From Bacteroidota bacterium (GTDB taxonomy: Bacteria > Bacteroidota > Bacteroidia > Bacteroidales > NBLH01): a DNA stretch of 64,000 bases. The stretch spans positions 17,914 to 81,913 of the forward strand of contig JANYKN010000050.1 of the NCBI GenBank assembly GCA_025361565.1, read 5' to 3'. Positions 12,621 through 30,439 of this stretch are shown in pieces (the stretch's first letter is position 1; every line of letters begins with the position of its first letter). The position numbers and the translations under genes were made by a program. The notes below the pieces were generated by a model. The model was not told where the DNA came from. It ran no database searches and saw nothing but the letters and a program-made list of their open reading frames with translations.

Positions 12621-13409
12621 TTACAACTTCTTTTTAACATCTCTTCGGTTAATAATAATCAATAGCACCAGAACTGTGATAAAAATTATGGCGGAAAGCG
12701 GCCTGAGTTCAGGTGTAAGTCCTCCTCTTCGTGCATCGGCATAAATATAGGTCGAAAGTGTTTCAAGACCTTCATTGCCAATAGTAAACAGGGTAACAAC
12801 AAAATCATCAATTGAAAGGGTGAACGCGAGTATAAAACCACTGATCATACCCGGTCTTAGCTCTGGAAGCAATATTTTCCATAATGCATGAAAAGGTGTA
12901 GCACCCAGATCTAGTGCTGCTTCGTAAAGATTGGCGTTCATGCGGCGAAGGCGGGGTAGCACACTCAGCACTACATAAGGTGTGCAAAAGGTGATATGAG
13001 CCAAAATTACTGTTGCATATCCCTGTGTTATTCCAATACTCACAAAAAGTAAAAACAATGATATAGCAGTAATAATATCAGGATTGAGGATGGGTATGGT
13101 ATTTACCAGCTGAATTGCTCTTTGCTGGCGCGGCTTAAGGTTGTAAATTCCTATAGCGGCCATCGTTCCCAGTACAGTTGAGGCAAATGCTGCGCTCAAT
13201 CCAATAATGAGCGTATTCCACAGTGCACTGGTAAGCGAATGATGTATTCCTCCTCGAAAGATAGATGAATAAAGCTTAAATGAAAAACCTGTCCAATTGC
13301 CTAATACCCTGGCTTCTGTAAATGAAAAAATAACAACGATAAGTATTGGTGCATAGAGCATTACCAGTAAAAGTCCCAAGTAAGAAGATGAAAGTATTTT
13401 TTTTATCAT
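12621..13409 (-). CDS. potC: Spermidine/putrescine ABC transporter permease
   Basis: Six-TM permease with EAA loop EAALDLGATPFHALWKILLPELRPG. It overlaps potB by 4 nt. Confidence 0.88.
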   Translation of the reverse strand: MIKKILSSSYLGLLLVMLYAPILIVVIFSFTEARVLGNWTGFSFKLYSSIFRGGIHHSLTSALWNTLIIGLSAAFASTVLGTMAAIGIYNLKPRQQRAIQLVNTIPILNPDIITAISLFLLFVSIGITQGYATVILAHITFCTPYVVLSVLPRLRRMNANLYEAALDLGATPFHALWKILLPELRPGMISGFILAFTLSIDDFVVTLFTIGNEGLETLSTYIYADARRGGLTPELRPLSAIIFITVLVLLIIINRRDVKKKL

Positions 13410-14206
13410 ATCAAATTTCCTTCCTCCGCAGCTTTAGTGCTTCCACCAGTCTGAAGCAGTGATGTTATACCAACAAGCAGAAGCATCACCAATGAAAGGG
13501 CAGCTCCATAATTCCATGTTCCGTTATAAATGTTTTCCTGGAGCGTGGTACCAAACAATTTAATATTGTTTATAGTTAGTAGCTCTGCAATGGCAAAGGT
13601 TGAAATAACAGGCATAAAAACCATCATAACTCCGCTGGCGATACCTGGTTTCGATAATGGGAGTATAGTCCTGAAAAAAACTTGTTTTGGATTTGCCCCA
13701 AGATCCTGTGCTGCTTCAATTAAATTTTGATCCGTTTTCTGCAAAACGTTGTAAATTGGATAAATCATAAAAGGTAGGAAATTATAAACCATCCCAAAAA
13801 TGAGGGCTCCTTGCCCCAATGGCAGCTTTAAAAAATCGAACAATGCTACTGTAGCCAAGGTTCTGATAAGAAAATTGACCCACATGGGTAAAATGAAAAG
13901 TATCACCAGTAATTTTGCCCTGTGCGATTCCATCCTGCTTAACAGGTATGCTGCAGGATATCCCAAAAGAATACATAAAATTGTAGTAATTGCTGCAATA
14001 ATAACAGAATAGATGAAGGTGTTCATTGCTTCTGTCTGCAACCAGAATTTTCGGAAATTTGTGAACGAAAATTCGCCTTCATTATTGGTGAAAGCAAACC
14101 AAACAATTAAAACCATTGGAACCAAAACAAAAAAAGAAAGATAAAGGACATATGGAATTGTCCAATTCCTCCTTCGCCCAAAAAATGATAAAAATTTTCT
14201 TAGCAA
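13406..14206 (-). CDS. potB: Spermidine/putrescine ABC transporter permease
   Basis: EAA loop EAAQDLGANPKQVFFRTILPLSKPG. It has a multi-TM profile. Confidence 0.88.
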   Translation of the reverse strand: MLRKFLSFFGRRRNWTIPYVLYLSFFVLVPMVLIVWFAFTNNEGEFSFTNFRKFWLQTEAMNTFIYSVIIAAITTILCILLGYPAAYLLSRMESHRAKLLVILFILPMWVNFLIRTLATVALFDFLKLPLGQGALIFGMVYNFLPFMIYPIYNVLQKTDQNLIEAAQDLGANPKQVFFRTILPLSKPGIASGVMMVFMPVISTFAIAELLTINNIKLFGTTLQENIYNGTWNYGAALSLVMLLLVGITSLLQTGGSTKAAEEGNLI

Positions 14207-14218
14207 GTTTATATGAAT

Positions 14219-15607
14219 TTAAAGGTTTTCAATTTGAATTGATTTGGGAGAAATACTTATCCCCACAGTGTCGTCATCATCCCATATATCGTTGGTATCT
14301 ATATAGATGTGTTCATTTCCTTCAATAAGTACAGTAAGGTGATAATGATTTCCTTTGTACAAGATGAAACTAACAACACCACTTAACATACCATCCTCTT
14401 CGTTATCATGCAGTACCACATTCCTAAAATCAACCAGGACTTTTACCTTGGCATCGCTAGTGAAATTTTGTGCATCATCGCATTTGAACGTATTCCCAAG
14501 GAATCGGACATGTAACTTATCAACTATACTTCCCTCGAATGTATTGCAATGCCGTTCTTTTTTCATTACCTGAATATCGAATGGTTTCACCCTTAGTCCA
14601 ACCGTTTTACCTGGCTCAAAACAATGATAATCCTGAATTATAAACTCAAAACCCTCGGAGCTAGTAACCATCATCTCATAATGCACGCCTTTGAATATAC
14701 TTGATGTAACCTGGCCGCTAAACTGAGCTGCATCAGACATTTCGAAAATGTAAATATCTTCAGGACGGATCACAACTTCGACAGGTTCATTAGGCCCGAA
14801 GCCCTTATCCACACATTCAAACTGCTGGCCGGCAAATTCTACAAGCTCGTCTTCAATCATTATTCCGTCAAGGATATTACTTTCGCCAATAAAATCGGCT
14901 ACAAACGAGTTTTTCGGTTCATTATATATTTCTGTTGGTGTGCCAATTTGCTGTATAATTCCCTCGCGCATTACCACAATTCTGTCACTTAAAGTAAGAG
15001 CCTCTTCCTGATCGTGTGTAATATAGACAAAACTGATATTCAATTTTTTGTGCATAGCCTTTATTTCCATTTGCATATCCTTTCGCATTTTATGGTCAAG
15101 GGCAGCCAATGGTTCATCGAGGAGCAAAACTTCAGGTTGGTTAACAATAGCGCGGGCAATGGCTACACGCTGTTGCTGACCACCTGAGAGCGAATCCACA
15201 TCACGTCCTTCGTAATCGGACATGATCACCATTTTCAAAACTTGTTTCACCTTTTTTTTGATTTCATCAACAGGGATCTTTTTTAGTTTAAGCCCGAAAG
15301 CTATATTTTCAAAGACGTTAAGGTGAGGAAATAGCGCATATTTTTGAAAAACAGTATTTACTGGTCGAAGATGAGGAGGAGTGATTGTCATATCCTGACC
15401 TATAATGGTTATTTTTCCGTCAGAAGCCTTTAGGAATCCAGCAATTAGTCTCATCAACGTTGTTTTTCCACAACCTGAAGGACCAAGTATGGTTACAAAC
15501 TCTCCTTTACCGATAGAAAGATTAATATCATGAAGAACTGTCTTGTCTCCAAATGTATGGGATAAGTGCTCAACAGTGATGATATTGTTATCATTATTAT
15601 GTTGCAT
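14219..15607 (-). CDS. potA: Spermidine/putrescine ABC transporter ATPase with an extended C-terminal TOBE-like region
   Basis: Walker A is GPSGCGKTT, the signature is [14 protein letters not shown] and Walker B is LLLDEPL. The C-terminal region looks like two TOBE-like beta modules. Confidence 0.9.
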
Positions 15608-15926: not shown

Positions 15927-18900
15927 TTAAACCTTAATTCCCATAACCAACACGTCATCAATCTGTGCCAAATCGCGTTTCCACTTCATAAAAGCTTGTT
16001 CCAGTATTATTTTTTGTTCGATCATTGATTTGCCTTGAGCGGACATTAAAAGTTCCTTAAATCGCTTCGATTTGAATTTTTCACCGGTTTCTCCACCAAA
16101 CTGATCAACATATCCATCTGAAAATGAGTACAAACTATCTCCATTTTTAAGTTGGAACACATGGTTTGTAAATTCTTTTTCGGCCAAATGGATTCCTATT
16201 GGCTGACGATCGGCTTTTAAATGGATTAATTCATAACGTGCATCTATATCAATGCTCTCGTCTTTAAGGTTTATTTCTTGATTTGGCCTAATGATATATA
16301 GCGGATTGTAAGCGCCTGCATATTGAAGCATCAATGTTTCGCTGTCAATAATTAAAAGTGCTATGTCCATACCATCCTTCTGTTCTCCTTCCTTGCCTTC
16401 CTGATGCAATGATTGTTTTACTTTGCTCCGTAACCGGTTTAGTATCTGTGCTGCACTGTCCATGCTTCTACGAGTTATAATTTCGTTAAGGAACGAACTT
16501 CCCAACATGCTCATAAAAGCACCAGGAACTCCATGTCCGGTGCAATCTGCTGCAACAACTGCCACGTAGTTGTTGATCTTTTTCATCCAGTAAAAATCAC
16601 CACTTACAATATCGCGTGGTTTATAGTATATGAAATGCTCCAGTAAAATATCATCAGCATATTGGGTTGACGGTAGCACTGCTTGCTGTATCCTTTGGGC
16701 ATAGCTGATGCTGTCGAGAATTTCCTTTTTTTGTTTGTAAGCAATATCGCGCTGTTCTTCAATTTTAGTTTTACTGCGTTCAATTTCTTCTGTTCGTTCT
16801 TTCACAATTTCTTCCAAGCGATCTTTCTCTTTTTCAGAAGCACGCATACTCCATATAAAATAGAACCTGATGAGCACAATCAATATCAAAACATAGATTA
16901 ATATAGCCCACCATTGCCTGAATATAGGGGTGAGGACTTTAAAACTAAATTCAGCCTTATCTGCAATTTTTCCAAACTCGTTGCGGGCTTCAACCATAAA
17001 CCGATATTCACCGTCCGGCAGATTGGTATAGTCCTTTTTTGTCAATAAATCCCAACTTGATGTATCTTTATCAAATCCTTTCAGGAAAAAGCGATATTCA
17101 ACTTTTCCCATAGCTGGAAAAACCGGAGCGCTAAACTCAAATTGAAGGGAATTGTTTGAATATCCAATTCTTGTTGTTTTTTCATTCAGATTAATCAATG
17201 AATCTTTTGATATAATTCTTATTTTACTAATCTGTGTCTTAAAATTAGCATCATAATCGTATAAATCTTTATAGTTCGAAATAAGCAAACCATCTTTTCC
17301 ACCAGCCCACAGTTGCGATTTTTTATCGTTTAACCAAGTGGTTTGAACCGAGAATGAAGCTACAGGCAAGAATTGAGTTGGGTTTAGTGCAACCCGGTTG
17401 TCTCCAGTATTTAAGAACGATAGGTTCTTTTGTTCACCATTGGTTACTACATATGAATTTTCTGATATTTCAAATAAATCGTGAATCCATAATTGCTGTG
17501 ATGCAGTATCATTAGGTAAAAGCGAGAAAGGTATTATTTTATTTGAAGCTTTATTTATCGAATAAAGCCCTTTTTCGGAACTCAGGAATATTTCACCTGC
17601 TTTTTTATTTAAATGGAGATAGGTGAAATTAATTTCGGCCTCAATTTCAACTAGTTGTTTGTTTTTGGATTTGTAAATATATATTTTTCCCGGACTAACT
17701 TCCATGTATAAATCTCCTTCTTTGTCTTCGACAAGGTTGAGCACATCACCAGTCATTCCTGGAATGGTTTGGATTGCTTTGATATTATTGTTATCTTTTT
17801 GATAAACAACTACTTTTCGGTTTTGACCAACATAAATTAAATTTGTATGAACCGATGAAGGTGCCATACAAAAAGTGAACCCTGTATTTTCTATAGCCTG
17901 CACATTTAACCCTTTTACTTTGAATATTCCACGCGAAGTTGCTGCAAGAATGTAATCATTGATTTTAAGTAGGGATAAGCAAGCTCCTTCAATTTTATTT
18001 ATTTTATTAATTGATGACGCTTCTAAATAAAAAAGGCCTTGATCTGTTGCAAAATATAGCGAATTTGCAAGTTCTTCAATATCTTGCACTTTACCAAACA
18101 GACCACTTGTTTTATTGTCTATATAGCTTAGTGGCCAGTTTATTTCTGCTTTTGAAATGCCATTATTGGTTGTTATCCAGAGTGATGCGCCTTTATCTAA
18201 AAATAATGAATTAATGCTTTCGTCCTGCAGTTTCGATGACCTATCAATTACCTTCAGTATTTTTCCAGATTCATTGATTAATACTATTCCTCCGGTTAAA
18301 GTACCAATTGCATAGTTTGATTTGCTTGATTTTATACCACAGGATAAGCCGTACTTTTTAATATATTCATTGATAGGGGATTCAAATACAATGATTTCAT
18401 TATTTTTTAGTAAAAAAATGCCTTGATTTTCAGAACCTATCATTATTTCATTTTTGTTACCTGTAGGTATCATAAAAAGTATATTCAGAAAAGGCATTTC
18501 TGTTTTGAGTACTACTTTTTTAAATTTCTTATCATGATAAATGCATAATCCGGATGCATTTGACCGATTATTTTTGGAATCGAAAAGGATAAAGATTTGT
18601 TTGTTTACCCGGAATGCTGAAAGCGCCTGATTATCCAAAGTAATTTTTTCGGTTTTTGTTCCATCATAACAAAACATCGTTTTATCGGAGAAAAAGTAGG
18701 TATAGTTATCTATACATAAAACCTTATAGATGAGTCCTATAGTTGTTTTGTCTTCTGTTGAATCAACCAGCGAAAAAAAATGAGTTAACCCTTTTTTGTC
18801 TTTTTCAAGATATCCAAAATCGTATAGTCCACCTGCAAAAACCTGTCCTTTGGCGTTCATATTCATGGATAGAATGCGCATTCCGCTGGAAGATGGTATT

Positions 18901-19136
18901 TTTGTCCACTTTGTTCCGTCGTATTCCAGAATTCCGGAAAAGTTGGCAAAATACATAATCCCATTTAAATCCTGTACCATTTCAAAGCTTTTTTCATGGG
19001 CATTGTATTCTTCAGGAGTATAATTCCTGATGAATGGAAGGCCGCCAGTTTTATCAAAATTTTGGGATAATGCAGGCATAGCCAATATGGTAAGGAATAT
19101 TAAATAAATTAATCGATATCTTATTTTCCTGCTCAT
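15927..19136 (-). CDS. Sensor protein phosphatase with a periplasmic two-component-regulator-propeller region, a Y_Y_Y domain, one TM helix, a coiled coil and a PP2C/SpoIIE phosphatase domain
   Basis: Signal peptide MSRKIRYRLIYLIFLTILAMPALSQ. It has a propeller-type repeat region. The Y_Y_Y-like segment is VEYRFFLKGFDKDTSSW...LPDGEYRFMVEARN. The TM helix WWAILIYVLILIVLIRFYFIW is at about aa 742-762. PP2C motifs are SGDFYW, DCTGHGVPGA and SDGYVDQFG. Confidence 0.85.
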   Translation of the reverse strand: MSRKIRYRLIYLIFLTILAMPALSQNFDKTGGLPFIRNYTPEEYNAHEKSFEMVQDLNGIMYFANFSGILEYDGTKWTKIPSSSGMRILSMNMNAKGQVFAGGLYDFGYLEKDKKGLTHFFSLVDSTEDKTTIGLIYKVLCIDNYTYFFSDKTMFCYDGTKTEKITLDNQALSAFRVNKQIFILFDSKNNRSNASGLCIYHDKKFKKVVLKTEMPFLNILFMIPTGNKNEIMIGSENQGIFLLKNNEIIVFESPINEYIKKYGLSCGIKSSKSNYAIGTLTGGIVLINESGKILKVIDRSSKLQDESINSLFLDKGASLWITTNNGISKAEINWPLSYIDNKTSGLFGKVQDIEELANSLYFATDQGLFYLEASSINKINKIEGACLSLLKINDYILAATSRGIFKVKGLNVQAIENTGFTFCMAPSSVHTNLIYVGQNRKVVVYQKDNNNIKAIQTIPGMTGDVLNLVEDKEGDLYMEVSPGKIYIYKSKNKQLVEIEAEINFTYLHLNKKAGEIFLSSEKGLYSINKASNKIIPFSLLPNDTASQQLWIHDLFEISENSYVVTNGEQKNLSFLNTGDNRVALNPTQFLPVASFSVQTTWLNDKKSQLWAGGKDGLLISNYKDLYDYDANFKTQISKIRIISKDSLINLNEKTTRIGYSNNSLQFEFSAPVFPAMGKVEYRFFLKGFDKDTSSWDLLTKKDYTNLPDGEYRFMVEARNEFGKIADKAEFSFKVLTPIFRQWWAILIYVLILIVLIRFYFIWSMRASEKEKDRLEEIVKERTEEIERSKTKIEEQRDIAYKQKKEILDSISYAQRIQQAVLPSTQYADDILLEHFIYYKPRDIVSGDFYWMKKINNYVAVVAADCTGHGVPGAFMSMLGSSFLNEIITRRSMDSAAQILNRLRSKVKQSLHQEGKEGEQKDGMDIALLIIDSETLMLQYAGAYNPLYIIRPNQEINLKDESIDIDARYELIHLKADRQPIGIHLAEKEFTNHVFQLKNGDSLYSFSDGYVDQFGGETGEKFKSKRFKELLMSAQGKSMIEQKIILEQAFMKWKRDLAQIDDVLVMGIKV

Positions 19137-19237
19137 TCTTTGTTTTTATCTTTTTTTAAAACTATTCACTACTCAAGAGTTGAAATATTGAGAAACCAAT
19201 TTCCAATTTCTAATTTTAGTCAATCCATGTAGATTCT

Positions 19238-22200
19238 TTATATAATATCATTTTCTATGCCACTCAATGTCAATTCTTTTTGTTCTGATATTTGATTATT
19301 TTTATTTTCCCACAATGCATTTATAATATCCTGAGCAAAAAGCTTATTATTAACCAACAGATTATTAATCAGATATATATTGATTTGCATAAGAGTTGCT
19401 TCTCCATTCACTGAAATATAGGTATTAAATAGCTCTTCAGGTTTAATGAATGGACAAAAAATATCTCCTGCATTTATTTTATTTCCGTTTTTAACTTCAA
19501 CTAATTCCCCTTCAGCCAGGATAATAAATTCATTAAAACGATCTGCAAATGTAACGGAAGCACCTTTTTCCAAAATTACTTCAATTGCCTTTGTTGATAA
19601 TTCAATGATTTGTTCCTCAATTACATGTGTAAATATATTTAGGTTTTTTAGTTTCTTTAATTTATCAAAGATTAAACTCTTACTTCCGTTGTCATAAGCG
19701 TTTATTTCGTTTGCAAAATCTTTTAATCCGGGTGCTTTTGTAAAATTTTTATTCACTTCTTTTTCAAAGAGATCCTTATTCTTTTTAAACAAACAAAAGG
19801 TTGCAAGTTGTCTCATCATTGGGTGTGGATGCACTATATTCCCAATCAGAATAGGAGTTATTTGCTCATCTTCAAATGTTGAAAGTATTTGAATTGCAAT
19901 GGTTTTTATATAAAGACCGGTTACCAGATATTCTGTATTTAGGATATCGATCAATTGCTCAACAGTATTTAATTTTTCTGATGGGAAATAATTCAGGTAT
20001 TTATTGATTAATTCATTATCCTGGTCACTTTCTAAGAGTGGTAATAACAATGGTTTATGAAATTCGGAAAAAATAATATCGGCAATTTCAAGAGCAAATC
20101 CTTTGGCATCTTTGTCATTGCTTTCAAGATTATCTGAGATTAGTTTAATTGCGTGAGGATCATACAAAACCGATAAAAGGGAAAATATTTTTCTCTTTTT
20201 TTCCAATTTTTCAAGTTCAAGGGCAATCAATATATTGTTGGATGTGAGGGATTCGCTTAAATTGATTATAGCAGAAGCAATATATACATGATTTTTTATC
20301 TCATTTTCTATTTTTTCCCAAACAATATTGCTTTCATTCCTGTTTGACATATATTTTAGAACACCTAATGACTTGATAATTTGCTCACTTACTAAGTTAT
20401 TGTGGTGTCTGATATTTCGTTTTAAAAATTCGATTGCTTTTTCGCCTCCAATTTTTTCAGCCAATTCAATAATTTTTATTTGAAATCCAATATCATATTC
20501 TGTTTTCTGGAAATCATGATCCAATTCTGTCAAAATGGCTTCGCCAATGTTGATTATCGCAGCCGAAACTGTATTGTTGAAAACAGGGTTCTGAAATAAA
20601 GTAACCAAATGATAAAATAAGTCGGTTTCTTTCATTCGTCCAGCTGTAATAATGGCTTCGCATTTAACTTCAAAGTTATCGTCGTGAAGAAGCCTAATCA
20701 ATGGCTTTTCAATTTTGTAAATCGAATAATTCGATAAATTCCGTGTAGCTATAATTCGATCAGTAGGATTTTCTGATTTTGAAAGTTCAATAACATCGTT
20801 GAATTTCAATGTTTTGTTCAAATTCAAAATTCGTACAATTTCATCATTTTGAGCTATGATTTTATCAGATTCGTAAGGGAAAATTAATCGGCAAAGCTTT
20901 ATTAGCGAAGGAAGTTGCGTGTGATTACCTTTTGCAATATATTCATTTAATGTAAATAACAAAGGGTGTAAATCAGTGATTCCAAGTGCCTCTCTTTTAT
21001 TCGATAACATCATTTGTAATTCATTTCGGTACTCTTTGTAGATTTCAACTGCACTTTTAGTCCAAAAAATAATGACTATCAATAAAAAAGCAGAGAAATA
21101 AACCAATGAAAATCCAGGAATTTTAGCAAATAGGAAAAGTAAAATACCAGCCGCAATGCTTGCATATGCTTTAGGTCCACTTTCTACTTTATTCTGAAAC
21201 GATATTCGTTCATCCGGAGGTAGTGGTTGAAATAAAACTTGAGTTGCCGGATCGTGAAACGAAGTCCTGACAGCCCTTGTAAATAATCTGCCCAGAGCAA
21301 CAAATGAAAAAAATAAAGAGAAAGCACCATAAATTAGCCCAAATATAGTGGCCATAGTAACACTAAATACCATAACAAGTGGAAAAACAAGTAAACCAAA
21401 TTTCATCCCATATTTTGCCATTAACCTACCCGAAATAAAGGATTTGAGTATAAATTCAACAATGGAACTAATCCCGAAGAATATACCAACAAATGCAGTA
21501 AGAGCCTCTTTGTCTGGATATTCAATCTTTGCCTGGGCCTGAAAAATAAAATCAATAAAAAACTGAACAAAAATGGGGACAAAGGCAATTACGAAGAATA
21601 ATTTATAATACCGGTTTTGTAAAAATGATGTTTTTTTCTGAGCTTGTCCATTAAACGATTTCTTTGTTTTTTTTGTGGGATCTGCCAACTTTTCATTGTA
21701 CTTTTTTACAATCAAAATCATAATAAGAAAACCAATCAACAAGGAAATGCCTGAAATTAGAAGTAAATCTTCAGTGCTGATTAGTTTCAATAAAAAAGGC
21801 ACAGAGAAAAAAGCAATAATACTTGCAACAACCTCGCCACCAGATATAAGGCCAAAAACCCTTTTGCCTTGTCGTAAAGAAAATAAACGACCCGCCATTC
21901 CCCAAAAAGTAACCGCATGAATATATGCAAAAACACGAATCCATGCATATATTATAAAAATGATTATCAACGGTTTAGAACCAATGAAAAAGATTATAAA
22001 AACAATAATCGAAATCAGGAGAAATCCAATTCCTCCTGTTAAACTTTTGGTAAAATCATATTTTTTTTGAAGTGTCGAAAAGATTTGTCCAACCAGCCAT
22101 ACTATTACCCCTGAAGCAATAAATGCAATGGAAAGCATATCGCGTTCAAAAATATTCAGAAATAGGGCAGTACTGCTGGTAACAAAAAATGCCAGTGAAG

Positions 22201-22297
22201 CTCCTGCAAAAAAGGAATAAACAACTGGTAAAAATACCAGCAACCCTTCACCTTTTTGTATGTTTAAAGCATTAAATATGAGGCTTTTTGTTTTCAA
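19238..22297 (-). CDS. Fusion protein with an N-terminal ~12-TM MFS/NTT(TLC)-like transporter, a central HEAT/armadillo-like repeat region and a C-terminal degenerate cyclic-nucleotide-binding-like domain
   Basis: The first ~430 aa are strongly hydrophobic with many TM segments. The middle ~400 aa is a helical repeat region. The C-terminal ~135 aa has a CNB-like beta-roll pattern (FIILAEGELVEVKNG...AGDIFCPF...ISVNGEATLMQI) but lacks the usual FGE...R[ST]A cassette. Confidence 0.7.
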   Translation of the reverse strand: MKTKSLIFNALNIQKGEGLLVFLPVVYSFFAGASLAFFVTSSTALFLNIFERDMLSIAFIASGVIVWLVGQIFSTLQKKYDFTKSLTGGIGFLLISIIVFIIFFIGSKPLIIIFIIYAWIRVFAYIHAVTFWGMAGRLFSLRQGKRVFGLISGGEVVASIIAFFSVPFLLKLISTEDLLLISGISLLIGFLIMILIVKKYNEKLADPTKKTKKSFNGQAQKKTSFLQNRYYKLFFVIAFVPIFVQFFIDFIFQAQAKIEYPDKEALTAFVGIFFGISSIVEFILKSFISGRLMAKYGMKFGLLVFPLVMVFSVTMATIFGLIYGAFSLFFSFVALGRLFTRAVRTSFHDPATQVLFQPLPPDERISFQNKVESGPKAYASIAAGILLFLFAKIPGFSLVYFSAFLLIVIIFWTKSAVEIYKEYRNELQMMLSNKREALGITDLHPLLFTLNEYIAKGNHTQLPSLIKLCRLIFPYESDKIIAQNDEIVRILNLNKTLKFNDVIELSKSENPTDRIIATRNLSNYSIYKIEKPLIRLLHDDNFEVKCEAIITAGRMKETDLFYHLVTLFQNPVFNNTVSAAIINIGEAILTELDHDFQKTEYDIGFQIKIIELAEKIGGEKAIEFLKRNIRHHNNLVSEQIIKSLGVLKYMSNRNESNIVWEKIENEIKNHVYIASAIINLSESLTSNNILIALELEKLEKKRKIFSLLSVLYDPHAIKLISDNLESNDKDAKGFALEIADIIFSEFHKPLLLPLLESDQDNELINKYLNYFPSEKLNTVEQLIDILNTEYLVTGLYIKTIAIQILSTFEDEQITPILIGNIVHPHPMMRQLATFCLFKKNKDLFEKEVNKNFTKAPGLKDFANEINAYDNGSKSLIFDKLKKLKNLNIFTHVIEEQIIELSTKAIEVILEKGASVTFADRFNEFIILAEGELVEVKNGNKINAGDIFCPFIKPEELFNTYISVNGEATLMQINIYLINNLLVNNKLFAQDIINALWENKNNQISEQKELTLSGIENDII

Positions 22298-22309
22298 TTT
22301 TGAATATTA

Positions 22310-22969
22310 TTAATCATCAATTGTTATTGGTTTGGATCGATCTCTAACCATAAATTTATAACCTAGTTTGATATAAGTCATAAAAAGTGGTTCGTGAAAA
22401 ATATCTTTAGTTATCGCAAATTGTATGCTTATACCACTTTTATCTATCATCTCAATGCCAGGACCAATGAACCAATATCCTTTATCAAATGCTTTTTCAA
22501 TTGTCCATTTATCGTAGCTTAAAACTCCTAAATATGTCATTTTTGTTACTTCATACTTTACATATTGGATAAAGTACATATGATTTTCAGATTGTTTGTT
22601 TAAGCCAAAAAAAAATTGTTCCTGAAAATTAATTAATAGTTTATGATTCATCACATCAAAATTAAAGTCGAGTCTTGGCCCTGTCCAGAATCCACCTGAT
22701 TGATCGTATTTTGAGTAATCAAAAAATTTAAATTTCCAAAAGTTTATTCCAACCATAAAATCAACCCTGGCCAGACTTCCGCTAGGAACGTATTTTGCAG
22801 GAGTAAAAATGTGATCATCAGGCCTTAAACGGAACTCCCACGGTGAATTTTCTATATTCATCCTGATTTCCAGGGCCATCTTAGTCCACATATCAACTGG
22901 AACTTGCGCTTGGATTTTTATCCCACAACAAATAAAAACTAATGTTATTATCTTTAAAAGACGTTGCAT
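22310..22969 (-). CDS. Secreted beta-rich hypothetical protein, possibly a small outer-membrane barrel
   Basis: Signal peptide MQRLLKIITLVFICCGIKIQAQ. It has an alternating aromatic/hydrophilic pattern. Its ATG (22969) directly abuts the stop codon (22972-22970) of the upstream gene. Confidence 0.6.
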   Translation of the reverse strand: MQRLLKIITLVFICCGIKIQAQVPVDMWTKMALEIRMNIENSPWEFRLRPDDHIFTPAKYVPSGSLARVDFMVGINFWKFKFFDYSKYDQSGGFWTGPRLDFNFDVMNHKLLINFQEQFFFGLNKQSENHMYFIQYVKYEVTKMTYLGVLSYDKWTIEKAFDKGYWFIGPGIEMIDKSGISIQFAITKDIFHEPLFMTYIKLGYKFMVRDRSKPITIDD

Positions 22970-24196
22970 TTATTTATTATTTTTTGAGATCCGCTCAAAT
23001 ATTTCAAGTAATTCATTTTCAGGAAAAACAGAACGGTTTAATTCATAGGCTTTTGTTTTTACAAAATCAAGAATTTCGATTATTTGATTTTCATTGAATT
23101 CATATCCTTTCAATTGAGCTACTTCTTTAATTACCCGGTTACTAGCCAGTTGAGTGACCAAGATTGTTTTTTGAATACCTAAAATTTTTTCAGGATCAAA
23201 CGGTTGAAAACTTTTGGTATCAACAAAAGGAGTTCCAGTTGAAATTGAATTGACGCCTGTTCCCACAATCGGATCTGTAACTTTTAAGTCAACACCAGTA
23301 TATTTACTTGCTAGTTGTGCTATTTTATGAAGCATTTTTAAATCCGGGGGTGTTAAAAAAAGATCCTTGCCTTCAATTCCAAATCGTTTCATCATTTTAT
23401 TGCATTCATAAACCAAATGAAAACAGAGTAATTCAGTTTGCACCAACCCATTTCGTTCTGCTAATCCAAGCCATGAGCTGGCTGCCAGATTTATTCCCTT
23501 ACGAATAGATTCGAGATTATTGGCCAAAGCAAAACCTAAATCATTATGAAAATGAACTCCATAGAGTTGATCTTTTTCAGAATGAAACTTTAGTTTTTCA
23601 ATGTAGCTTGCAACCTCAGTGGGATAAAGCTTTCCTTGTGTGTCGCCGAGATGAGTTATGGCAATTCCTTGTTCTTTAAGTAAGGCAGCTGCCTCTGCAA
23701 TATATTCGGGTTCAGTTTCAAACGAAGCAGCCAGTTGAACATCAACTGGGATTCCATTTGCATGGTCTACTGCAAATTTGGCAATATCCAACCCTTGCAA
23801 TAATACATCTTTTTGACTTTTGTGTAGCATTAAATTACACATCCGTTCCGATATGGGCAACACGTAAGCTATTCTTGCATATTTTGCATTCTTAACTGAT
23901 GCCAGACTATCCAAAATTTCATTTTTTGAGCTACGGCAATTTACTGCCAGATAACAATTATCAACTTGTTCTGCCAAAATTTTGATTGCTCTTTCTTCTT
24001 CCTTTCCTATTGAAATAAAACCTGCTGCAAATACCAAATGATCCGGGCCATTTAGCCCAAATAAACTTCCATGTTTTTTTGCAATATCAACTCTTTGGTT
24101 ACCACTTAGGATTGTTTTTGCCTGAGCGCCATCCCGGGCAATTTCTTCCCAAAATACAAAACGATTATTTTTTATTGATTCAACTATTCTATCCAT
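22970..24196 (-). CDS. DRE-TIM metallolyase superfamily protein (HMGL-like / isopropylmalate-homocitrate synthase-like), divergent
   Basis: The N-terminal motif is FWEEIARDGAQA (compare DTTLRDGEQ). The metal-binding HxH is VHFHNDLGFALAN, followed by GLAERNGL (compare GERAGNA). There is no signal peptide. Confidence 0.75.
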   Translation of the reverse strand: MDRIVESIKNNRFVFWEEIARDGAQAKTILSGNQRVDIAKKHGSLFGLNGPDHLVFAAGFISIGKEEERAIKILAEQVDNCYLAVNCRSSKNEILDSLASVKNAKYARIAYVLPISERMCNLMLHKSQKDVLLQGLDIAKFAVDHANGIPVDVQLAASFETEPEYIAEAAALLKEQGIAITHLGDTQGKLYPTEVASYIEKLKFHSEKDQLYGVHFHNDLGFALANNLESIRKGINLAASSWLGLAERNGLVQTELLCFHLVYECNKMMKRFGIEGKDLFLTPPDLKMLHKIAQLASKYTGVDLKVTDPIVGTGVNSISTGTPFVDTKSFQPFDPEKILGIQKTILVTQLASNRVIKEVAQLKGYEFNENQIIEILDFVKTKAYELNRSVFPENELLEIFERISKNNK

Positions 24197-24224: not shown

Positions 24225-26843
24225 TTAGAATTCATATATTAGACTTAGGTAAATATTCCTTCCATTTTGTTTCAAACTTGAGGCTAGCTCTGGAGTTACC
24301 TGATCCAATCCAGGCGAAAAATATTCAGTGTTTAAAATATTAAAAATTGAAAATTGTACCGTTAATCCTGTTTTCTTTGGAGAATAAGACAATGCTCCAT
24401 CCAGGATAAAATAAGGGGCAAATTTATCTTTGTTTGCAGGCACTGTGGTATTTTCGCCCGTTATTCGTTCGCTCACAAAGTTTGTCCGCAGGTTGATGTT
24501 TAAAACTTCTTTAAACAGATAATTAGCTCCAAAATTTATATGATGATTGGCTATATCGCTTATTCTTAATTTTTTATAGGGTTCCAGATTCGCATCCAAT
24601 AACGGATTGCCTTGGCTGTCAGTTGGTTTAATTGTATATGGAATGGTATAAGTATAATTCAGATAACAAGTTAAATCATTCCATTTCAGATTTGATGAAG
24701 CGTTAATTCCATAAACCTCAGCATTGCCTTTAGCTTGATTTTGATTGGTTAATGTACCGTCAGGTTTAGCGGTCTGGACTTCTTGAATGATATTGCTGTA
24801 CTGCGAAAAATAGGCAGCTGCCTCAACTGAAATCAGTTCACCGAAATCTTTGCCAATTCCAAATTCATAATTTTTCACTTTCTCGGGCTGCAATGTTGGG
24901 TTTGCAAGTTCCCTTTTACCTGCAGCGGTTGAATATTTTTCGCGGTTGGTTGCGTCTTTAAAAGCCTCGGCATAAATAGCTTTTAATGTATAGCCTTTTA
25001 ATGTGTATACAAATGCAATCCGCGGGTTAAATGCATTTCCATATCCTTCGTTTTCCCTTACTCTATTGTTGTCATACCTTAAACCAAGCGTTATTTTTAA
25101 ATGTTTGATAAGTGAAATCCCAGTTTGGGCGTAAAAACCAATATCTCTTGAAAAAAAATTATTACCGCCAGGAATTAAAGTTTGAGGAGAGCCGGATTGT
25201 TCCGCATCATTTTTACTCGATGAGGTATAGTCACCTTGAATGTTACTGAATCTCAGCTCAAAACCTGCCACAGCATCAATCCATTTAACGGGAGAAAAAA
25301 GAACCTTCATCTCTTCGCGCATTTGGTTTGACTTTTGGAAAAGATAAAGGCTATCAAAAGTGGGCACTTTTCCGTTGATTAAATTATCCAAATTGAAATT
25401 TCCTGTACTATAGTTTTTTCTATACCTGACAATACAGTTATCTTTATCAAAAAAATGATCTTTATAACTCAACAAATTACTGATATTTAAATTGTTCGAT
25501 ATTTTTTTCTCATATTTTGCATAAACATAAGTATGTATTGGCCTCCAGGATTGGCCTTGGTCATAACCCATAAATTGTGAATCGTTATATTGTGCACCTG
25601 GTCCTTCTGCTTTGTTCCAGTATGAATATCCAATCAAAAAATCGTATATTTTTAATTTACTTTCAATAAGAAAAGCCTGGGTATGATCCGAAAATGAAAC
25701 ATTGTTATAAACTACATTATCATATGCAAGCGCCTGATTAACACCTGCATCCGAAAGAATGATATCATTGTTAATATCTAAATTGTAATATGTTCCGGAG
25801 CTTGGATGGCTAGCTAAAAAATTGGTGACCTTGGTATCATCTGTAATGTCTAGCTTACTGTGATAATTTGTCAATCGATCTGCAGTCATCTCCCGAGGTT
25901 CATAACTGTGGCCAGGATAGCCTGATAAATTCTGTTCATCGGATAAAAAAAATCTTCCTGTCAACGAAAATGAAATGTTATTGTTCTTAGTTCGGGCAGC
26001 TAAACTGATATCTGCAAATTTAGTATTGTACGATCCATAAGAAACCCGTGCGTTAATTCCTGCTAATTTTCCTGGATTTATCATTTCCCATGGTTCCTTG
26101 GTTATGATATTGATTACACCCAAAAATGCATTGGAACCATACATAGTGGATGCCGGTCCATACACAATTTCTATGTTTTTGATGTTGCTTAAAGCATATT
26201 GTCGCGAAAGGTATACATTGCTCGACCACAAATCGTTATCTTCAATTCCATCAATTAAAAACAGCGTTCTGTTTGTATTGATAGAACGGTATCCACGCTG
26301 ATAAATATGCGAATATAAATTTCCGTTCGAACGGGATATATCAAATCCGGGCAAATCATGCAAAATGGCTTCTAAATCGAGATAACCTCTTGTTTTAATA
26401 TCTTTAGCAGTCAATAACATAACTGTTGCCGGCGCCTCTTTTATATTTTCGGATTTTTTAGAAACAGATGTAATTTGTTGTGCGCTATTTCTATCTTTTA
26501 TTGATTGAAGGATTTCGATAAATCGAGGTGGATCTGTAAGATAATCTGGTTGAAATTGCTGATCGATTTGCAGAAGTTTTGAAATTAATTGATTGGCCAA
26601 ACTGTCGTTATCTTGCTCAAGATATGATTTAGCCATAATTCTATAAGCTTGTACTTTTTGTTTATCATCGAATCCGTTAGCTACACATTTTTGAACCAAA
26701 TCAATCGCTTCGTCAAAATTACCTGATCTGTATTTTTCAGATGCATCATCAATTACCGACCAATCGCATTTGCTTTGTGCATAACCTGAAATGCTTATAA
26801 TCAAGCCAATCAAAAGAAATATATGTCTAATAATTTGATTCAT
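24225..26843 (-). CDS. TonB-dependent outer-membrane receptor with a ~110-aa TPR-like N-terminal extension
   Basis: A signal peptide ending YAQ is followed by a helical TPR-like segment (GNFDEAIDLVQKCV...AYRIMAKSYLEQDN...). The plug then starts at EAPATVMLLTAKDIKTRG and is followed by a long barrel. The C-terminal sequence is YLSLIYEF. Confidence 0.85.
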   Translation of the reverse strand: MNQIIRHIFLLIGLIISISGYAQSKCDWSVIDDASEKYRSGNFDEAIDLVQKCVANGFDDKQKVQAYRIMAKSYLEQDNDSLANQLISKLLQIDQQFQPDYLTDPPRFIEILQSIKDRNSAQQITSVSKKSENIKEAPATVMLLTAKDIKTRGYLDLEAILHDLPGFDISRSNGNLYSHIYQRGYRSINTNRTLFLIDGIEDNDLWSSNVYLSRQYALSNIKNIEIVYGPASTMYGSNAFLGVINIITKEPWEMINPGKLAGINARVSYGSYNTKFADISLAARTKNNNISFSLTGRFFLSDEQNLSGYPGHSYEPREMTADRLTNYHSKLDITDDTKVTNFLASHPSSGTYYNLDINNDIILSDAGVNQALAYDNVVYNNVSFSDHTQAFLIESKLKIYDFLIGYSYWNKAEGPGAQYNDSQFMGYDQGQSWRPIHTYVYAKYEKKISNNLNISNLLSYKDHFFDKDNCIVRYRKNYSTGNFNLDNLINGKVPTFDSLYLFQKSNQMREEMKVLFSPVKWIDAVAGFELRFSNIQGDYTSSSKNDAEQSGSPQTLIPGGNNFFSRDIGFYAQTGISLIKHLKITLGLRYDNNRVRENEGYGNAFNPRIAFVYTLKGYTLKAIYAEAFKDATNREKYSTAAGKRELANPTLQPEKVKNYEFGIGKDFGELISVEAAAYFSQYSNIIQEVQTAKPDGTLTNQNQAKGNAEVYGINASSNLKWNDLTCYLNYTYTIPYTIKPTDSQGNPLLDANLEPYKKLRISDIANHHINFGANYLFKEVLNINLRTNFVSERITGENTTVPANKDKFAPYFILDGALSYSPKKTGLTVQFSIFNILNTEYFSPGLDQVTPELASSLKQNGRNIYLSLIYEF

Positions 26844-26865: not shown

Positions 26866-29800
26866 TTAATCAACAGGTATTTTTTTGGTGTATACTATGT
26901 CTTTTCCAACATAGTTCAACCAGTTTTTATAGCTCATATTTTCTGAAATGTTATCACGAATGATTGATTTCAAATCAGTAATATTGATTTTAGAAATTAG
27001 GATACTTTTATCAGCGCTTCCTGAAAGTACCAATGAGTTATCTTTATTCAGCACAAGGCAATATACCCAATTTGAATGCCCTCCAATAATGGCTGGTTCT
27101 GCTTCTAAATTATCATAATCCCATATTTTTACATTACCATCATAGCTGCACGTAAGCATCCGGTTTTTTTGATTGTCAAAATGAATATCAGTTACTCCTG
27201 AGGCATGTGTGTATACCGATTTTATTGAATTGCCGTTTTTTATTTCAATTTTGCCCGATGCAAAACCAATAATTAAATCATTTTTTTTGTTCCAGCAAAG
27301 CGACAATATTTTTCCTTCTTTACTTTGATAAGTATCTTCAAGTGTGTGGGTGTTTGAATTAAAAATCCTTACAACTCCTTGTTCCGAAGCTACTGCAAAT
27401 TTGCTTTCATCAGAATTTGCAGCCCCGGCTATAAATTTTTCACTGGCATTAAATACAACTTGCGCTCCGGTTTGAAAATCTTTGAAATTCCAGGATCTGA
27501 TAAAACCATCGCTGCTGATGGATATTAATTGAGATGAATTCTTTAGTGCAAGCAGTTTATTTACTGAATAAGTATGTCCGGCTAAAATCATCAGGTTGTT
27601 ATTTTCGATATTCCAAACCATTATTGCCCCCTGATTAGTTCCTGCAACAACAAATTTATCATCAGGGCTGAAAGTGACTGAACGGAAATTATATTTCTTG
27701 TCAGACTTCGGGGTTTTCATATTCACAGGGTGTTGTGGATCTGAAAAGCTGAATTTCTTAACAGTTCCATCATCGCTGCACGATGCAAAATATTTTCCAC
27801 TCTCCGATACTGCAATATCTCGAACTGCATCGGTATTTTGTCCACGGATAATAACTGAAGAATTGCTAACTCCCGAAAGTGCTGCATATATATCCGGATC
27901 ATACATGTTTCCCTGATATTTAACATTAAAATACCATGCTTGATAGGCCATAATTAAAGGCAACTCTGCCTGCTCTTCAGAGAGGTTTTTCGATTTCAGG
28001 TTATCCTGATAAACTTTAATAGCCTGAACTGCCAATGATTTTGCAATTGCCAGTTTTCTTAATGTATCTGTGCGAGCTTCTGAAAATTCTGCCCTAACTT
28101 TCTGTTTTTCAGCTTTGTCTTTTTGAAAAAGAGCGCTGTCTCGTAATTTTTCAGCTTCTATTTGTAGAAATTTTGCTTTGTCCCTCGATTTTTCAGCTTC
28201 ACCTTTCGATACTAAAGCAAGACCCTTTTGGATAACCGCTTCTTTTTTCTGCTCCAGTGCGTAAAGTTTTTGTTCTTCCGCCATTCTCCGCTCTTCATCA
28301 GCTATCATTTGTTGCTGTTCTGCAATTTTTTTATGCGAGATTGCTTCTTTTTTCTGGTCTTCCGCTGTTTTGCTTTCTTCAACGGCTATTTTTTCACTGT
28401 CAAGGGCTTTCTTTTCACTTGTTTCAGCTTTTATTTTTAAGTTTAAAGCAACTACTAAAAACGAAATAGAAATGAGCGAAGCCACTCCCATAAAAATTGC
28501 AATATATTTTGCGCGTTTTAAATTTCGCTTTTGTCTCTCTTCTTTTGCTGCAATAGCTTTTTCGTGTTCTTTCCTGCTATATTCAAGATAAGTCATTGTC
28601 CGTTCAAATGCCGGATCGTACCTTATTGCCCAGGTTTCATTTGGATTATTGTCTTGTTTCCATTTTAAGGCTAGTTGTAAATCAGGATTTACAAGCAAAC
28701 CAGTTTTTCCTTCCTGATAAAGTTCTGCTGATTTGGAAAGTCGTAAGTAGAGCTGTGCTGATTCTGTTTCTTCGCTAACCCATGAAACTAATCTTTTCCA
28801 AACACGCATTATGCTTTCGTGCGAAATATCAATCACAGTTGTTGGCTTTATTCGGGTAGGTAATAAGGGCATTAAGAAACTATTGCCCTCAGCTCTGAAT
28901 TCTTCAATAACTGCAACAACATCTTCTTCATGAGCTCCTGTAATTTTACATATTTCGTCCAAACGTGCCGGTCTACGTGTGCCTCTATTGTCCTCTCCTA
29001 AGTGAGTAAGGGATTTAAAGAGTTTTTCGGTAACTTTTTTTAATTCAAGGTTTTGAAGCGAGCCATAAATTTGTTCAGCATGAACCGATAGGGCATCTGT
29101 AATGGTACCAATTGCCAAGTAATGTTCTACATCTACAGCCTGATCTGCTTCTGCATTGATCATCCAATAATCCCATGTACGCATTAATGCATGTTGCAAT
29201 ACAGGCAATCCAACATCATATGTTTGGATATGATGTCGTAGTAGGGCGCTCAATTCTTCCGATATTTTTGCTCCGGCAAGTATCGCCGGGCCTTTAACAG
29301 CTTCTTCTTTTTCCTCCAGCGTCATTTTAGGAATCAGATAATGCCCCTCGTTAATCATTTGAGGTAGTGCTTCAAATTCTGTGCAATCGCTTAAAAAATC
29401 AGAACGCATTGATAATACGATATATACAGGATGTGTTCTCTGTTTTGATAAACCGATTAAGAAATTTACAAATTGTTCAGATTCCTCTTTTGAATTCGAT
29501 TGATACTCATCGTCGCGATATCTAAAAACTTCTTCGAATTGATCTACATAGACCAACAAGTTGTTATGAAAATTAATTTTTTTGAAATGTTCGGTTAAGT
29601 TTACTGCATCAGTTTGAATTATTTTTTCGAGATCTTTATATGAACCTGTCAGATTATTTTCGATACCATATTCGCAAAAAGTATCAATTAGGGCATCTGC
29701 CATATTTCCAATAGGTTGATTTCCTGGTCTAAAAACAATAGATGACCAGTTTTTTGATATTTTTTTCAATTCAGGTATTAAACCAGCTTTGACCAAGGAT

Positions 29801-29994
29801 GATTTTCCGCTTCCTGACGCCCCAGTAATTACTATAAAATGTGACTTTGTAAGGACTTTTATTAATTCGTAAGTTTGTTGCTCCCTTCCAAAGAAAAGAC
29901 TGCCTTCGCCAGTATCAAAACTTCTGATACCGGGGTAAGGATTTTTTATATATTCTTTAGCAGTAGTTTGAATCATAGCTGATTCTATTTTCAA
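26866..29994 (-). CDS. STAND-type P-loop NTPase (nSTAND/WD40-NTPase-like) with a winged-helix region, a single TM helix, a long charged helix and a 7-blade WD40 propeller
   Basis: The family-typical N-terminus is NPYPGIRSFDTGEGSLFFGRE. Walker A is GASGSGKSS and Walker B is LLVYVDQFEE. The TM helix YIAIFMGVASLISISFLVVALNL is at about aa 497-518. A K/E/A-rich helix spans about aa 520-665. Seven WD40-like blades are present, for example ASCSDDGTVKKFSF, GHTYSVN...SISSDGFIRSWNF and TCSYDGNVKIWDY. Confidence 0.85.
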   Translation of the reverse strand: MKIESAMIQTTAKEYIKNPYPGIRSFDTGEGSLFFGREQQTYELIKVLTKSHFIVITGASGSGKSSLVKAGLIPELKKISKNWSSIVFRPGNQPIGNMADALIDTFCEYGIENNLTGSYKDLEKIIQTDAVNLTEHFKKINFHNNLLVYVDQFEEVFRYRDDEYQSNSKEESEQFVNFLIGLSKQRTHPVYIVLSMRSDFLSDCTEFEALPQMINEGHYLIPKMTLEEKEEAVKGPAILAGAKISEELSALLRHHIQTYDVGLPVLQHALMRTWDYWMINAEADQAVDVEHYLAIGTITDALSVHAEQIYGSLQNLELKKVTEKLFKSLTHLGEDNRGTRRPARLDEICKITGAHEEDVVAVIEEFRAEGNSFLMPLLPTRIKPTTVIDISHESIMRVWKRLVSWVSEETESAQLYLRLSKSAELYQEGKTGLLVNPDLQLALKWKQDNNPNETWAIRYDPAFERTMTYLEYSRKEHEKAIAAKEERQKRNLKRAKYIAIFMGVASLISISFLVVALNLKIKAETSEKKALDSEKIAVEESKTAEDQKKEAISHKKIAEQQQMIADEERRMAEEQKLYALEQKKEAVIQKGLALVSKGEAEKSRDKAKFLQIEAEKLRDSALFQKDKAEKQKVRAEFSEARTDTLRKLAIAKSLAVQAIKVYQDNLKSKNLSEEQAELPLIMAYQAWYFNVKYQGNMYDPDIYAALSGVSNSSVIIRGQNTDAVRDIAVSESGKYFASCSDDGTVKKFSFSDPQHPVNMKTPKSDKKYNFRSVTFSPDDKFVVAGTNQGAIMVWNIENNNLMILAGHTYSVNKLLALKNSSQLISISSDGFIRSWNFKDFQTGAQVVFNASEKFIAGAANSDESKFAVASEQGVVRIFNSNTHTLEDTYQSKEGKILSLCWNKKNDLIIGFASGKIEIKNGNSIKSVYTHASGVTDIHFDNQKNRMLTCSYDGNVKIWDYDNLEAEPAIIGGHSNWVYCLVLNKDNSLVLSGSADKSILISKINITDLKSIIRDNISENMSYKNWLNYVGKDIVYTKKIPVD

Positions 29995-30439
29995 TTAAGA
30001 AATTATAAATTTGCGATTTGATAGATTTCAAGTACCATTATATATTTTGAGATACTAATTCAAAACCATTAAAATTCTAACACTTGAAAATTATACAGAA
30101 ACAATTGACTAAGAATTTTAGGCAGAATTATTAATTATAATATACTTTGTGTTAAGAATTCTTTATTCAAAAAGGATACCAAAAATTTTCATAGACCAAG
30201 AATAGATTGATCAGTTGCGCAGGAGAATAAATGTCTTTATTGATTAATCCTGATTTTAATTTAAATCAAACATTTACTTCTAAAAAGGATTTAAGTTTTT
30301 AATAAGAATGCCCTTAATTTTTAGATATAAAAAAATTGAAAAACAGAAATAGAGATTGCATAATTTTTAATATAAAGCATCAACTTGATTACAAAAAAGA
30401 TACTTTTAGTGAAATGTAAAGAAATAATCTTTAAAATAA

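Follow-up and report, generated by a model that had tools for sequence, protein, structure and literature searches.

The analysed stretch, called the window below, is a 64,000-nucleotide (nt) segment of a Bacteroidota bacterium genome (Bacteroidales, NBLH01; assembly GCA_025361565.1, contig JANYKN010000050.1, positions 17,914 to 81,913). It contains an open reading frame (ORF) for a STAND NTPase of the nSTAND1 family, in which a single hydrophobic helix, predicted to cross the inner membrane, lies between the NTPase module and a long alanine-patterned helix that leads to a C-terminal WD40 propeller. The gene heads a co-directional cluster on the minus strand and is directly followed by a gene for a TonB-dependent receptor (TBDR). 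The anatomy put forward in an earlier reading of the sequence (the original prediction), that is, a STAND module with Walker motifs, one hydrophobic helix, a charged helix and seven propeller blades, was recovered where it had been placed (Table 1).

Residue numbers are counted from the TTG at 29994 (1042 amino acids, aa) unless noted. Alignment A1 and the AlphaFold2 (AF2) model start at the ATG at 29976, and their numbers are 6 lower. This ATG (M7, 1036 aa) is likely the true start, being favoured by gene calls elsewhere and by a promoter-like site; the database homolog P0001, 100% identical to the protein, is also 1036 aa long. A cluster-wide sigma-70 scan found promoter-like sites to be rarer than in shuffled controls; the only informative one lies upstream of the ATG. 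A terminator scan detected no intergenic terminator in the cluster.

Table 1. Coordinates of the STAND gene, its parts, the adjoining gene cluster and the features cited from related loci (L numbers; all other positions refer to the window).
Feature	Position (nt)	Strand	Remarks
Promoter-like site TTGAAA-18-TATAAT	30002..30031	(-)	11/12; consensus match only, Bacteroidota promoters differ from sigma-70
Whole ORF: nSTAND1 NTPase, transmembrane helix, Ala-heptad coil, WD40 propeller	26866..29994	(-)	1042 aa from TTG
Cytoplasmic nSTAND1 STAND NTPase module, aa 19-429	28708..29940	(-)	Pfam PF20703
Basic juxtamembrane stretch RQKRNLKRAK, aa 487-496	28507..28536	(-)	Positive-inside signal, predicted cytoplasmic side
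Predicted single transmembrane helix YIAIFMGVASLISISFLVVALNLK, aa 497-520	28435..28506	(-)	Hydropathy, conservation, AF2
Alanine-heptad coil, aa 523-649	28048..28428	(-)	19 unbroken heptads; ~19 nm if straight
Seven-bladed WD40 propeller, aa ~712-1005	26980..27861	(-)	Pfam, AF2, Foldseek; predicted periplasmic
TBDR, 872 aa	24225..26843	(-)	Starts 22 nt past STAND stop codon
Receptor signal-peptide region	26775-26843	(-)	
Receptor N-terminal domain, aa 24-120, ~95 aa	26484..26774	(-)	Five-helix, TPR-like; no Pfam match
Rest of co-directional cluster	15927..24196	(-)	
HMGL-like enzyme	22970-24196	(-)	
Exported 219-aa protein	22310-22969	(-)	Signal peptide MQRLLKIITLVFICCGIKIQAQ
MFS-HEAT membrane protein, 1019 aa	19238-22297	(-)	
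Y_Y_Y periplasmic sensor fused to SpoIIE/PP2C phosphatase, 1069 aa	15927-19136	(-)	Last cluster gene
TIR_2+DUF4062 (NIR NADase-like) gene	L018:8482-9933	(+)	
TIR_2+DUF4062 (NIR NADase-like) gene	L034:8439-9938	(+)	
N-terminal domain on small barrel	L018:13081-13400		
nSTAND1 protein with TPR, two PG_binding_1 domains and GH19-like segment	L081:9926-13621	(+)	

NTPase module

The N-terminal module matches Pfam nSTAND1 (PF20703) with E = 1.7e-87 and 295 bits (cutoff 27.1), and the match takes in 374 of the profile's 379 positions. In an alignment of 50 homologs, the Walker A motif GASGSGKSS (aa 58-66, nt 29797-29823) and the DQFEE part (aa 151-155) of the Walker B motif VYVDQFEE (aa 148-155) are invariant in every sequence, as are the NPYPGIRSF motif near the N-terminus and the His of the DISHES motif (D..HES) in the winged-helix region. 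The AF2 model, computed from a 50-sequence alignment, has a mean predicted local distance difference test score (pLDDT) of 84 and of 80-90 within the NTPase, and its best full-length match in Foldseek is Apaf-1. Every sequence and fold feature that was tested for was found, and the protein is a bona fide nSTAND1 member. An NCBIfam scan returned generic P-loop matches only. A search of the PDB with the NTPase sequence gave only UvrA P-loop matches, indicating that no solved nSTAND1 structure is detectable by sequence.

Just 18 residues precede the NTPase domain (12 when counted from M7), and the protein therefore has no fused effector or DNA-binding output at its N-terminus, as had been proposed; a Pfam scan of the whole protein detected neither. 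No effector of the nuclease, TIR, SIR2, protease or DUF4062 type is fused or adjacent to the STAND gene in the window.

Hydrophobic helix and membrane topology

The sole Kyte–Doolittle peak of the protein is at aa 497-520, with a 19-residue mean of 2.54. The segment of 24 residues has no charged residue, and the basic cluster flanks it on one side only, with 7 Lys/Arg in the 15 residues upstream and 4 downstream. The helix occupies the same position in 120/120 of the best homologs (40-100% identity, ~1030 aa, mostly from metagenome-assembled genomes (MAGs) of Bacteroidales). Their 15 upstream residues contain 6-8 Lys/Arg with a typical net charge of ~+5, and the downstream net charge is typically ~+1, ranging from -2 to +4. 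In a broader sample, the best 150 NTPase matches among cluster representatives, 141 of which were scorable, a transmembrane (TM)-grade peak was located 440-560 residues past the NPYPG motif in 140, with mean flank charges of +4.3 upstream and +0.5 downstream. Finally, 84 genomic loci were examined (80 kept from a scan of one genome per species, plus four added separately), and the helix was present in ~72 of the 74 with a scorable ORF, the exceptions being one at threshold and one truncated. A survey of homologs for a TM segment between NTPase and WD40 domain had been suggested by the original prediction, and it came out positive in all three samples.

The helix sequence itself, AIILGxASxISILFLIISLNLxFKAEA, is conserved in homologs down to ~30% identity, and its small residues (Gly, Ala, Ser) line one face in register with the alanine heptad downstream. 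In the AF2 model, a single unbroken helix starts where the NTPase module ends and includes the whole hydrophobic segment; further long helices follow. Since its position, flanking charge and sequence are all conserved, the segment is not a chance event, and the upstream-positive charge bias predicts an N-in/C-out orientation.

Independent evidence for a periplasmic C-terminal side comes from a single example, a paralogous member from Pyrinomonadaceae (L081), in which a TPR region, two PG_binding_1 domains and a GH19-like segment come after the helix. Peptidoglycan-binding domains act only outside the cytoplasm. As an aside, the L081 protein is apparently a STAND NTPase that reads peptidoglycan.

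It is very improbable that the segment is instead a buried oligomerisation helix or a monotopic anchor and that the whole protein, WD40 domain included, stays in the cytoplasm. Such an arrangement would agree with the characterised STAND sensors, all of which are cytoplasmic, and with the WD40 and TPR arrays that follow the helix in relatives, which are typical sensors of cytoplasmic STAND proteins. It accounts poorly for a long uncharged segment of this hydropathy with a conserved basic cluster on one side, for the PG_binding_1 domains after the helix in L081, and for a conserved outer-membrane partner with a signal peptide among exported and lipoprotein neighbours (see below). The WD40 sensor is thus very likely periplasmic and the protein N-in/C-out, judging from its sequence features. 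The original prediction had placed the propeller outside the cytoplasm on condition that the helix was real, and the conserved positive-inside helix, the L081 architecture and the conserved partner all point the same way.

Alanine-heptad coil

The charged helix that follows (aa 520-665) contains 26 Lys, 21 Glu, 22 Ala and 12 Gln among 146 residues. Alanine occupies 19 of 21 positions of one heptad register in the window protein (aa 523+7k, k = 0..18, with Thr at 642). In 100,000 shuffles of the sequence no case reached this value, the maximum being 10. In alignment A1, Ala is invariant or nearly so at every 7th residue (aa 523, 530 ... 649, with Thr/Ala at 642), and the run has no stutter; Gln, Ala or Leu is conserved 3 residues past the Ala, which is often flanked by hydrophobic residues. 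The register of small residues extends back into the TM helix. A period of about 14 residues, as originally proposed, was not upheld: the true period is 7, and each 14-residue unit corresponds to two alanine heptads.

The pattern is a family property: 328 proteins were scored, and most have Ala at 14-19 of the ~21 heptads (median 16). Distant relatives with other sensors show the same A-x6-A pattern. In addition, the distance from the helix end to the C-terminus is nearly constant, with a median of 526 aa and an interquartile range of 521-530.5 (n = 249, ~1030-aa class, 30-100% identity). The conserved seam and the fixed length argue for a rigid, probably homo-oligomeric coiled coil and not for a flexible linker. 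The sequence pattern makes a parallel homo-oligomer the probable state of the coil. If straight, a helix of this size would measure ~19-22 nm and could span the periplasm, the width of which is comparable. Likening the charged helix to TolA domain II, as done originally, fits this fixed, ruler-like length.

WD40 propeller

Pfam matches to WD40 and propeller families span aa ~716-1030. In the AF2 model, 28 strands form seven blades over aa ~714-1002 with pLDDT > 90, in agreement with the expected propeller. Two short helices come before the propeller and two C-terminal ones after it. Foldseek aligned the propeller to bacterial and designed 7-blade WD40 domains with TM-scores of up to 0.89.

Probable outer-membrane partner and its N-terminal domain

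The gene context, which the original prediction did not consider, supplies the most informative evidence. The receptor encoded next to the STAND gene is composed of a signal peptide, an N-terminal domain (NTD), a TonB-box-like QQITSVSKK, a plug and a 22-strand barrel. Pfam recognises only Plug and TonB_dep_Rec_b-barrel. Its AF2 model (pLDDT 89, predicted TM-score 0.83) matched Cir, PfeA, BtuB and FpvA in Foldseek, and Cir-microcin, FpvA-pyocin and FhuA-T5 complexes are among the matches. The NTD is modelled as all-helical (helices within 28-120, pLDDT ~90) on the periplasmic side of the plug and carries a conserved Cys26/Cys53 pair, an invariant Gly41 and a DPxxF motif.

Relatives at 42-67% identity retain the STAND-TBDR pair despite having different genes upstream, and the order found in the window recurs in L001-L011 and others. 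In more distant loci the downstream gene encodes a 340-390-aa OMP_b-brl_2 barrel whose N-terminal ~100 residues are homologous to the NTD; the tblastn match covers window positions 26828-26490. When 50 of the downstream proteins were aligned, the final Gln of the signal peptide and the Gly were invariant, the DPxxF motif was conserved, and the two Cys were present in 45/50 and 43/50. The conserved Cys pair suggests a periplasmic disulfide in the NTD. The ~95-aa domain looks like a new family from its sequence, and the analysis thereby defines an unannotated periplasmic Cys-pair domain on outer-membrane barrels. It was seen on TBDRs of 850-917 aa as well as on the 340-390-aa OMP_b-brl_2 barrels, always beside a TM-STAND gene (~50 loci). 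The signal peptides of the exported partners end in ...AQ, with the invariant Gln at the predicted cleavage site, which matches the Bacteroidetes 'Q-rule' for signal peptidase I substrates.

Of the 74 loci with sufficient flanking sequence, 54 encode a barrel with this NTD directly after the STAND gene (17 TBDRs and 35 small barrels by type). Its occurrence follows the sensor: 54/62 loci of WD40 type have it, against 0/12 loci with TPR or another sensor, the split being a hand tally of the loci lacking the NTD against ORF lengths. That the NTD stays constant while the barrel changes, and that it tracks the WD40 sensor, is what one would expect if it served specifically for docking in the periplasm. 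The NTD is proposed, on gene order, as the docking partner of the propeller.

Gene cluster and sister loci

The cluster in the window runs in the order STAND, TBDR, HMGL-like enzyme, 219-aa protein, MFS-HEAT protein and Y_Y_Y-SpoIIE protein, with gaps of 22, 28, 0, 12 and 101 nt, and the order is repeated in L002-L004. The MFS-HEAT protein has at least 9 hydrophobic helices in its first 411 aa and then a ~600-aa HEAT-repeat region; its gene accompanies the STAND gene on the same strand in 32 of the 42 loci whose flanks are long enough. The Y_Y_Y-SpoIIE protein consists of a signal or TM segment, a ~715-aa periplasmic sensor of Y_Y_Y/propeller type, one TM helix and a cytoplasmic phosphatase. 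The 219-aa protein, which lies between the HMGL-like and MFS-HEAT genes in L002-L004 as well (45-46% identity), has no family match in Pfam or PHROGs. It was considered as a degenerate TIR/DUF4062 partner and rejected, as it showed no similarity and no PHROG match and has a signal peptide instead. The cluster contains no sigma or anti-sigma gene, in particular no ECF sigma factor.

In 45 of 75 related loci, a TIR_2+DUF4062 protein (~490 aa, cytoplasmic) is encoded upstream, its gene ending 8 nt before the STAND start. The protein is 30% identical between a Fulvivirga locus and an Acidobacteriota locus. The analysis thus links MFS-HEAT and TIR/DUF4062 proteins to one operon. DUF4062 has been described as a TIR-like NADase effector of STAND systems, found in Avs, in other defence systems and in human TEP1 (bioRxiv 10.64898/2026.09.04.749371, 10.64898/2026.05.01.722283).

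These partners raise the question of immunity. In that reading, a specific form of the receptor model given below, the propeller would watch the outer-membrane protein, which could be a phage or bacteriocin receptor, or the integrity of the envelope. An attack would make the STAND protein oligomerise and trigger abortive infection, with the TIR/DUF4062 NADase as effector in sister loci and the MFS-HEAT protein as another candidate, acting on the membrane. Roles in anti-phage defence are well established for STAND NTPases and for TIR/DUF4062 domains, and the two are translationally coupled in the 45 loci just described. TBDRs are classic receptors of phages and colicins, in line with the microcin, pyocin and T5 complexes among the fold matches. 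In addition, a 2025 preprint uses the phrase 'transmembrane STAND ATPases', in passing, for sensors of defence modules fused to proteases. The locus itself speaks less for defence, since PADLOC gave only marginal, P-loop-level matches to mad3 and mad8 (E = 9.6e-5 and 2.3e-3, aa 34-78), the window has no TIR/DUF4062 gene, and the genes form a stable, syntenic chromosomal cluster across Bacteroidales with transport, metabolic and regulatory functions rather than a defence island of variable content. Nor do protein length and sensor sequence diversify; both are well conserved. An immune function is accordingly regarded as unlikely.

Comparison with known systems

Like Apaf-1 and the bacterial STAND/NLR-like NTPases (Avs, bNACHT, MalT), the protein combines a P-loop NTPase, a winged-helix His motif and a C-terminal sensor, here WD40, and the pairing with a TIR/DUF4062 effector known from Avs and TEP1 is also seen in sister loci. 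It differs from the Apaf-1/Avs type in having a TM helix and a 19-heptad coil inserted between NTPase and sensor, in lacking a fused N-terminal effector and in the coupling of its gene to an outer-membrane barrel.

TolA, through its domain II within the Tol-Pal system, and TonB are parallels that share the single inner-membrane anchor, the long Ala/Lys/Glu-rich helix and a C-terminal domain aimed at outer-membrane components; the periplasm-spanning rod has its counterpart in the ~147-aa helix with 19 Ala heptads and fixed length. In both, however, the anchor is N-terminal with few cytoplasmic residues, while here it is central and preceded by a 490-aa cytoplasmic NTPase. TolA and TonB further carry a TolA_C or TonB_C domain and work with TolQR or ExbBD. 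The window protein has no such domain, its cluster has no TolQR- or ExbBD-like genes, and no sequence homology was detectable. TolB, a periplasmic Tol-Pal component, is a beta-propeller like the sensor described here.

An ATP-powered analogue of TonB/TolA, in which the NTPase would replace the proton-motive force and energise transport, or a passive tether that keeps the spacing of the envelope, was weighed in this context. The TolA-like layout and the fixed coil length fit such a role, as do the propeller of TolB and the TonB-box-like motif that the adjacent TBDR retains. Yet most partners in sister loci are small barrels without a plug, which need no energising, and STAND NTPases are slow oligomerisation switches rather than motors. 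With the central anchor, the large cytoplasmic domain and the lack of ExbBD- or TolQR-like genes in the cluster, this explanation appears highly unlikely.

The FecA-FecR-FecI system also has a TBDR with an extra periplasmic N-terminal domain ahead of the TonB box and an adjoining single-pass N-in/C-out inner-membrane protein that could read the receptor. Here, in contrast, the domain is helical, TPR-like and contains a Cys pair instead of being an STN domain, the partner is a STAND NTPase and not an anti-sigma factor, and many relatives have a barrel of another type than a TBDR. By analogy, the STAND protein may work like the TolA rod and like the FecA-FecR reading of a receptor N-terminus. 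The PknB-type PASTA kinases and ToxR/CadC follow the same logic of a cytoplasmic catalytic or output domain, one TM helix and an external sensor; the elements are different here, namely a STAND NTPase, a long rigid coil and a WD40 sensor. KAP P-loop NTPases are also STAND-related integral membrane proteins, and their TM helices sit inside the P-loop domain (Aravind et al. 2004, cited in PMC8195603), while the window protein has an uninterrupted NTPase, with its one helix placed after the complete module. The defining features of TonB/TolA, FecR and KAP proteins were looked for and not found, and the STAND protein belongs to none of these families.

Kaur et al. (2021, PMC8195603), who named nSTAND1, make no mention of a TM segment, and neither do papers on nSTAND1 conflict systems. 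Work on diversity-generating retroelements led to the prediction, for one genome, of NACHT/C-type-lectin targets in the periplasm. The literature search yielded no study of the present architecture, of the alanine-heptad ruler, of the NTD-barrel partner or of the operon, the sole trace being the phrase in the 2025 preprint.

Proposed mechanism

The preferred reading is that of a bitopic inner-membrane STAND receptor that acts across the envelope, its propeller reading the NTD of the cognate barrel. We give this model as a whole a probability of about 60%. The nSTAND1 NTPase would sit in the cytoplasm, and the continuous helix from the end of its module would cross the inner membrane once and carry on across the periplasm as the alanine-zipper coil of ~19 heptads, placing the propeller at its tip beneath the outer membrane. 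There, the propeller would dock on the Cys-pair NTD of the barrel encoded downstream, the TBDR in the window. The trigger would act at this contact and might be a ligand or cargo at the receptor, loss of the contact or envelope damage. The signal, passed through the coil and the TM helix, would toggle the nucleotide state and the oligomerisation of the NTPase, which would then act on the MFS-HEAT protein and, in sister lineages, on the separately encoded TIR/DUF4062 NADase-type protein. The inward direction of signalling and the output, like the topology, the WD40-NTD docking and the oligomeric state of the coil, are what we infer from anatomy, conservation and gene neighbourhood.

Several points weigh against this model. 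To our knowledge, the characterised STAND NTPases all sense cytoplasmic ligands. The membrane assignment, although a strong one, is drawn from hydropathy, conservation and charge bias in the sequence, and L081 is the only one of ~350 collected sequences with peptidoglycan-binding domains after the helix. The contact between propeller and NTD is deduced from synteny, and the NTD barrel is not adjacent in 8 WD40-type loci. The straightness and the oligomeric state of the coil are read from its heptads, in a region where the AF2 monomer is unreliable: pLDDT is 42-53 at aa ~524-577, with an inserted break across the most conserved heptads. Last, no TIR/DUF4062 homolog was found anywhere in the 64-kb window, and the output at this locus is therefore not given by the sister loci. 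As for the kink that AF2 puts in the coil, it was not interpreted as a hairpin, the break being artificial and of low pLDDT.

More tentatively, the parts can be read as an NLR-like envelope bridge of fixed length, made of NTD, propeller, alanine-zipper ruler and TM helix, which would convert events at the outer membrane into NTPase assembly. Its inputs would be receptor hijacking by phage or bacteriocin, cargo binding or loss of envelope integrity, and its outputs the NADase activity of TIR/DUF4062 or control of the MFS-HEAT protein; this version is possible and is put forward with due reserve.

STAND/NLR proteins serve as the paradigm of pattern recognition inside the cytoplasm, from animals, plants and fungi to bacteria. 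If the trans-envelope receptor model is true, the NLR principle would extend to surveillance outside the cytoplasm, with thousands of bacterial members. This would be the first STAND/NLR family to sense beyond the cytoplasm, and diderm bacteria would possess, besides Tol-Pal, TonB and FecAR, a new class of systems that signal across the envelope.

Distribution and variants of the family

A search with the NTPase alone against 1.84 billion cluster representatives (50% identity clusters) matched 43,441 clusters at E <= 1e-3, 25,557 at E <= 1e-10 and 6,688 at E <= 1e-30, and the scan of one genome per species returned at least 591 loci. The loci belong to Bacteroidota, Acidobacteriota, Cyanobacteria, Planctomycetota, Verrucomicrobiota, Chloroflexota and Proteobacteria, and the family occurs in the cultured genera Mucilaginibacter and Sediminibacterium as well as in MAGs assigned to Fulvivirga. 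The region after the helix is variable and may be one WD40 propeller, 14 WD40 repeats or a TPR array.

The layout of NTPase, TM helix, coil and sensor is the one that members of a very large nSTAND1 subfamily normally have; it is common but uncharacterised. The original prediction had called a trans-membrane STAND protein unusual; this does not hold for its abundance (at least 591 species genomes and the 6,688 clusters at the strictest threshold), while it does hold for an architecture that has not been characterised. Of the two properties then named together as fatal to the idea, that the architecture be common and already characterised, the first was found and the second was not.

Some minor observations concern the neighbourhood. 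Another recurrent neighbour of the STAND gene is the lipoprotein u403, and in other clades genes with a SpoIIE domain recur in its vicinity (7/42 loci). The Fulvivirga ortholog of the MFS-HEAT protein also matches a cNMP-binding domain, though weakly (E = 6e-4) and short of the Pfam cutoff. A complete ABC importer is encoded right after the cluster in the window, on the same strand (11364-15607 (-)); it comprises an ATPase carrying TOBE_2, two permeases of the BPD_transp_1 type and a binding protein of the SBP_bac_8 type. Among the family members themselves, the best-scoring representative, P0121 (1138 aa), has an architecture unlike the others: its NTPase, at 627-1082, comes after an N-terminal extension of ~620 aa that holds additional hydrophobic peaks.

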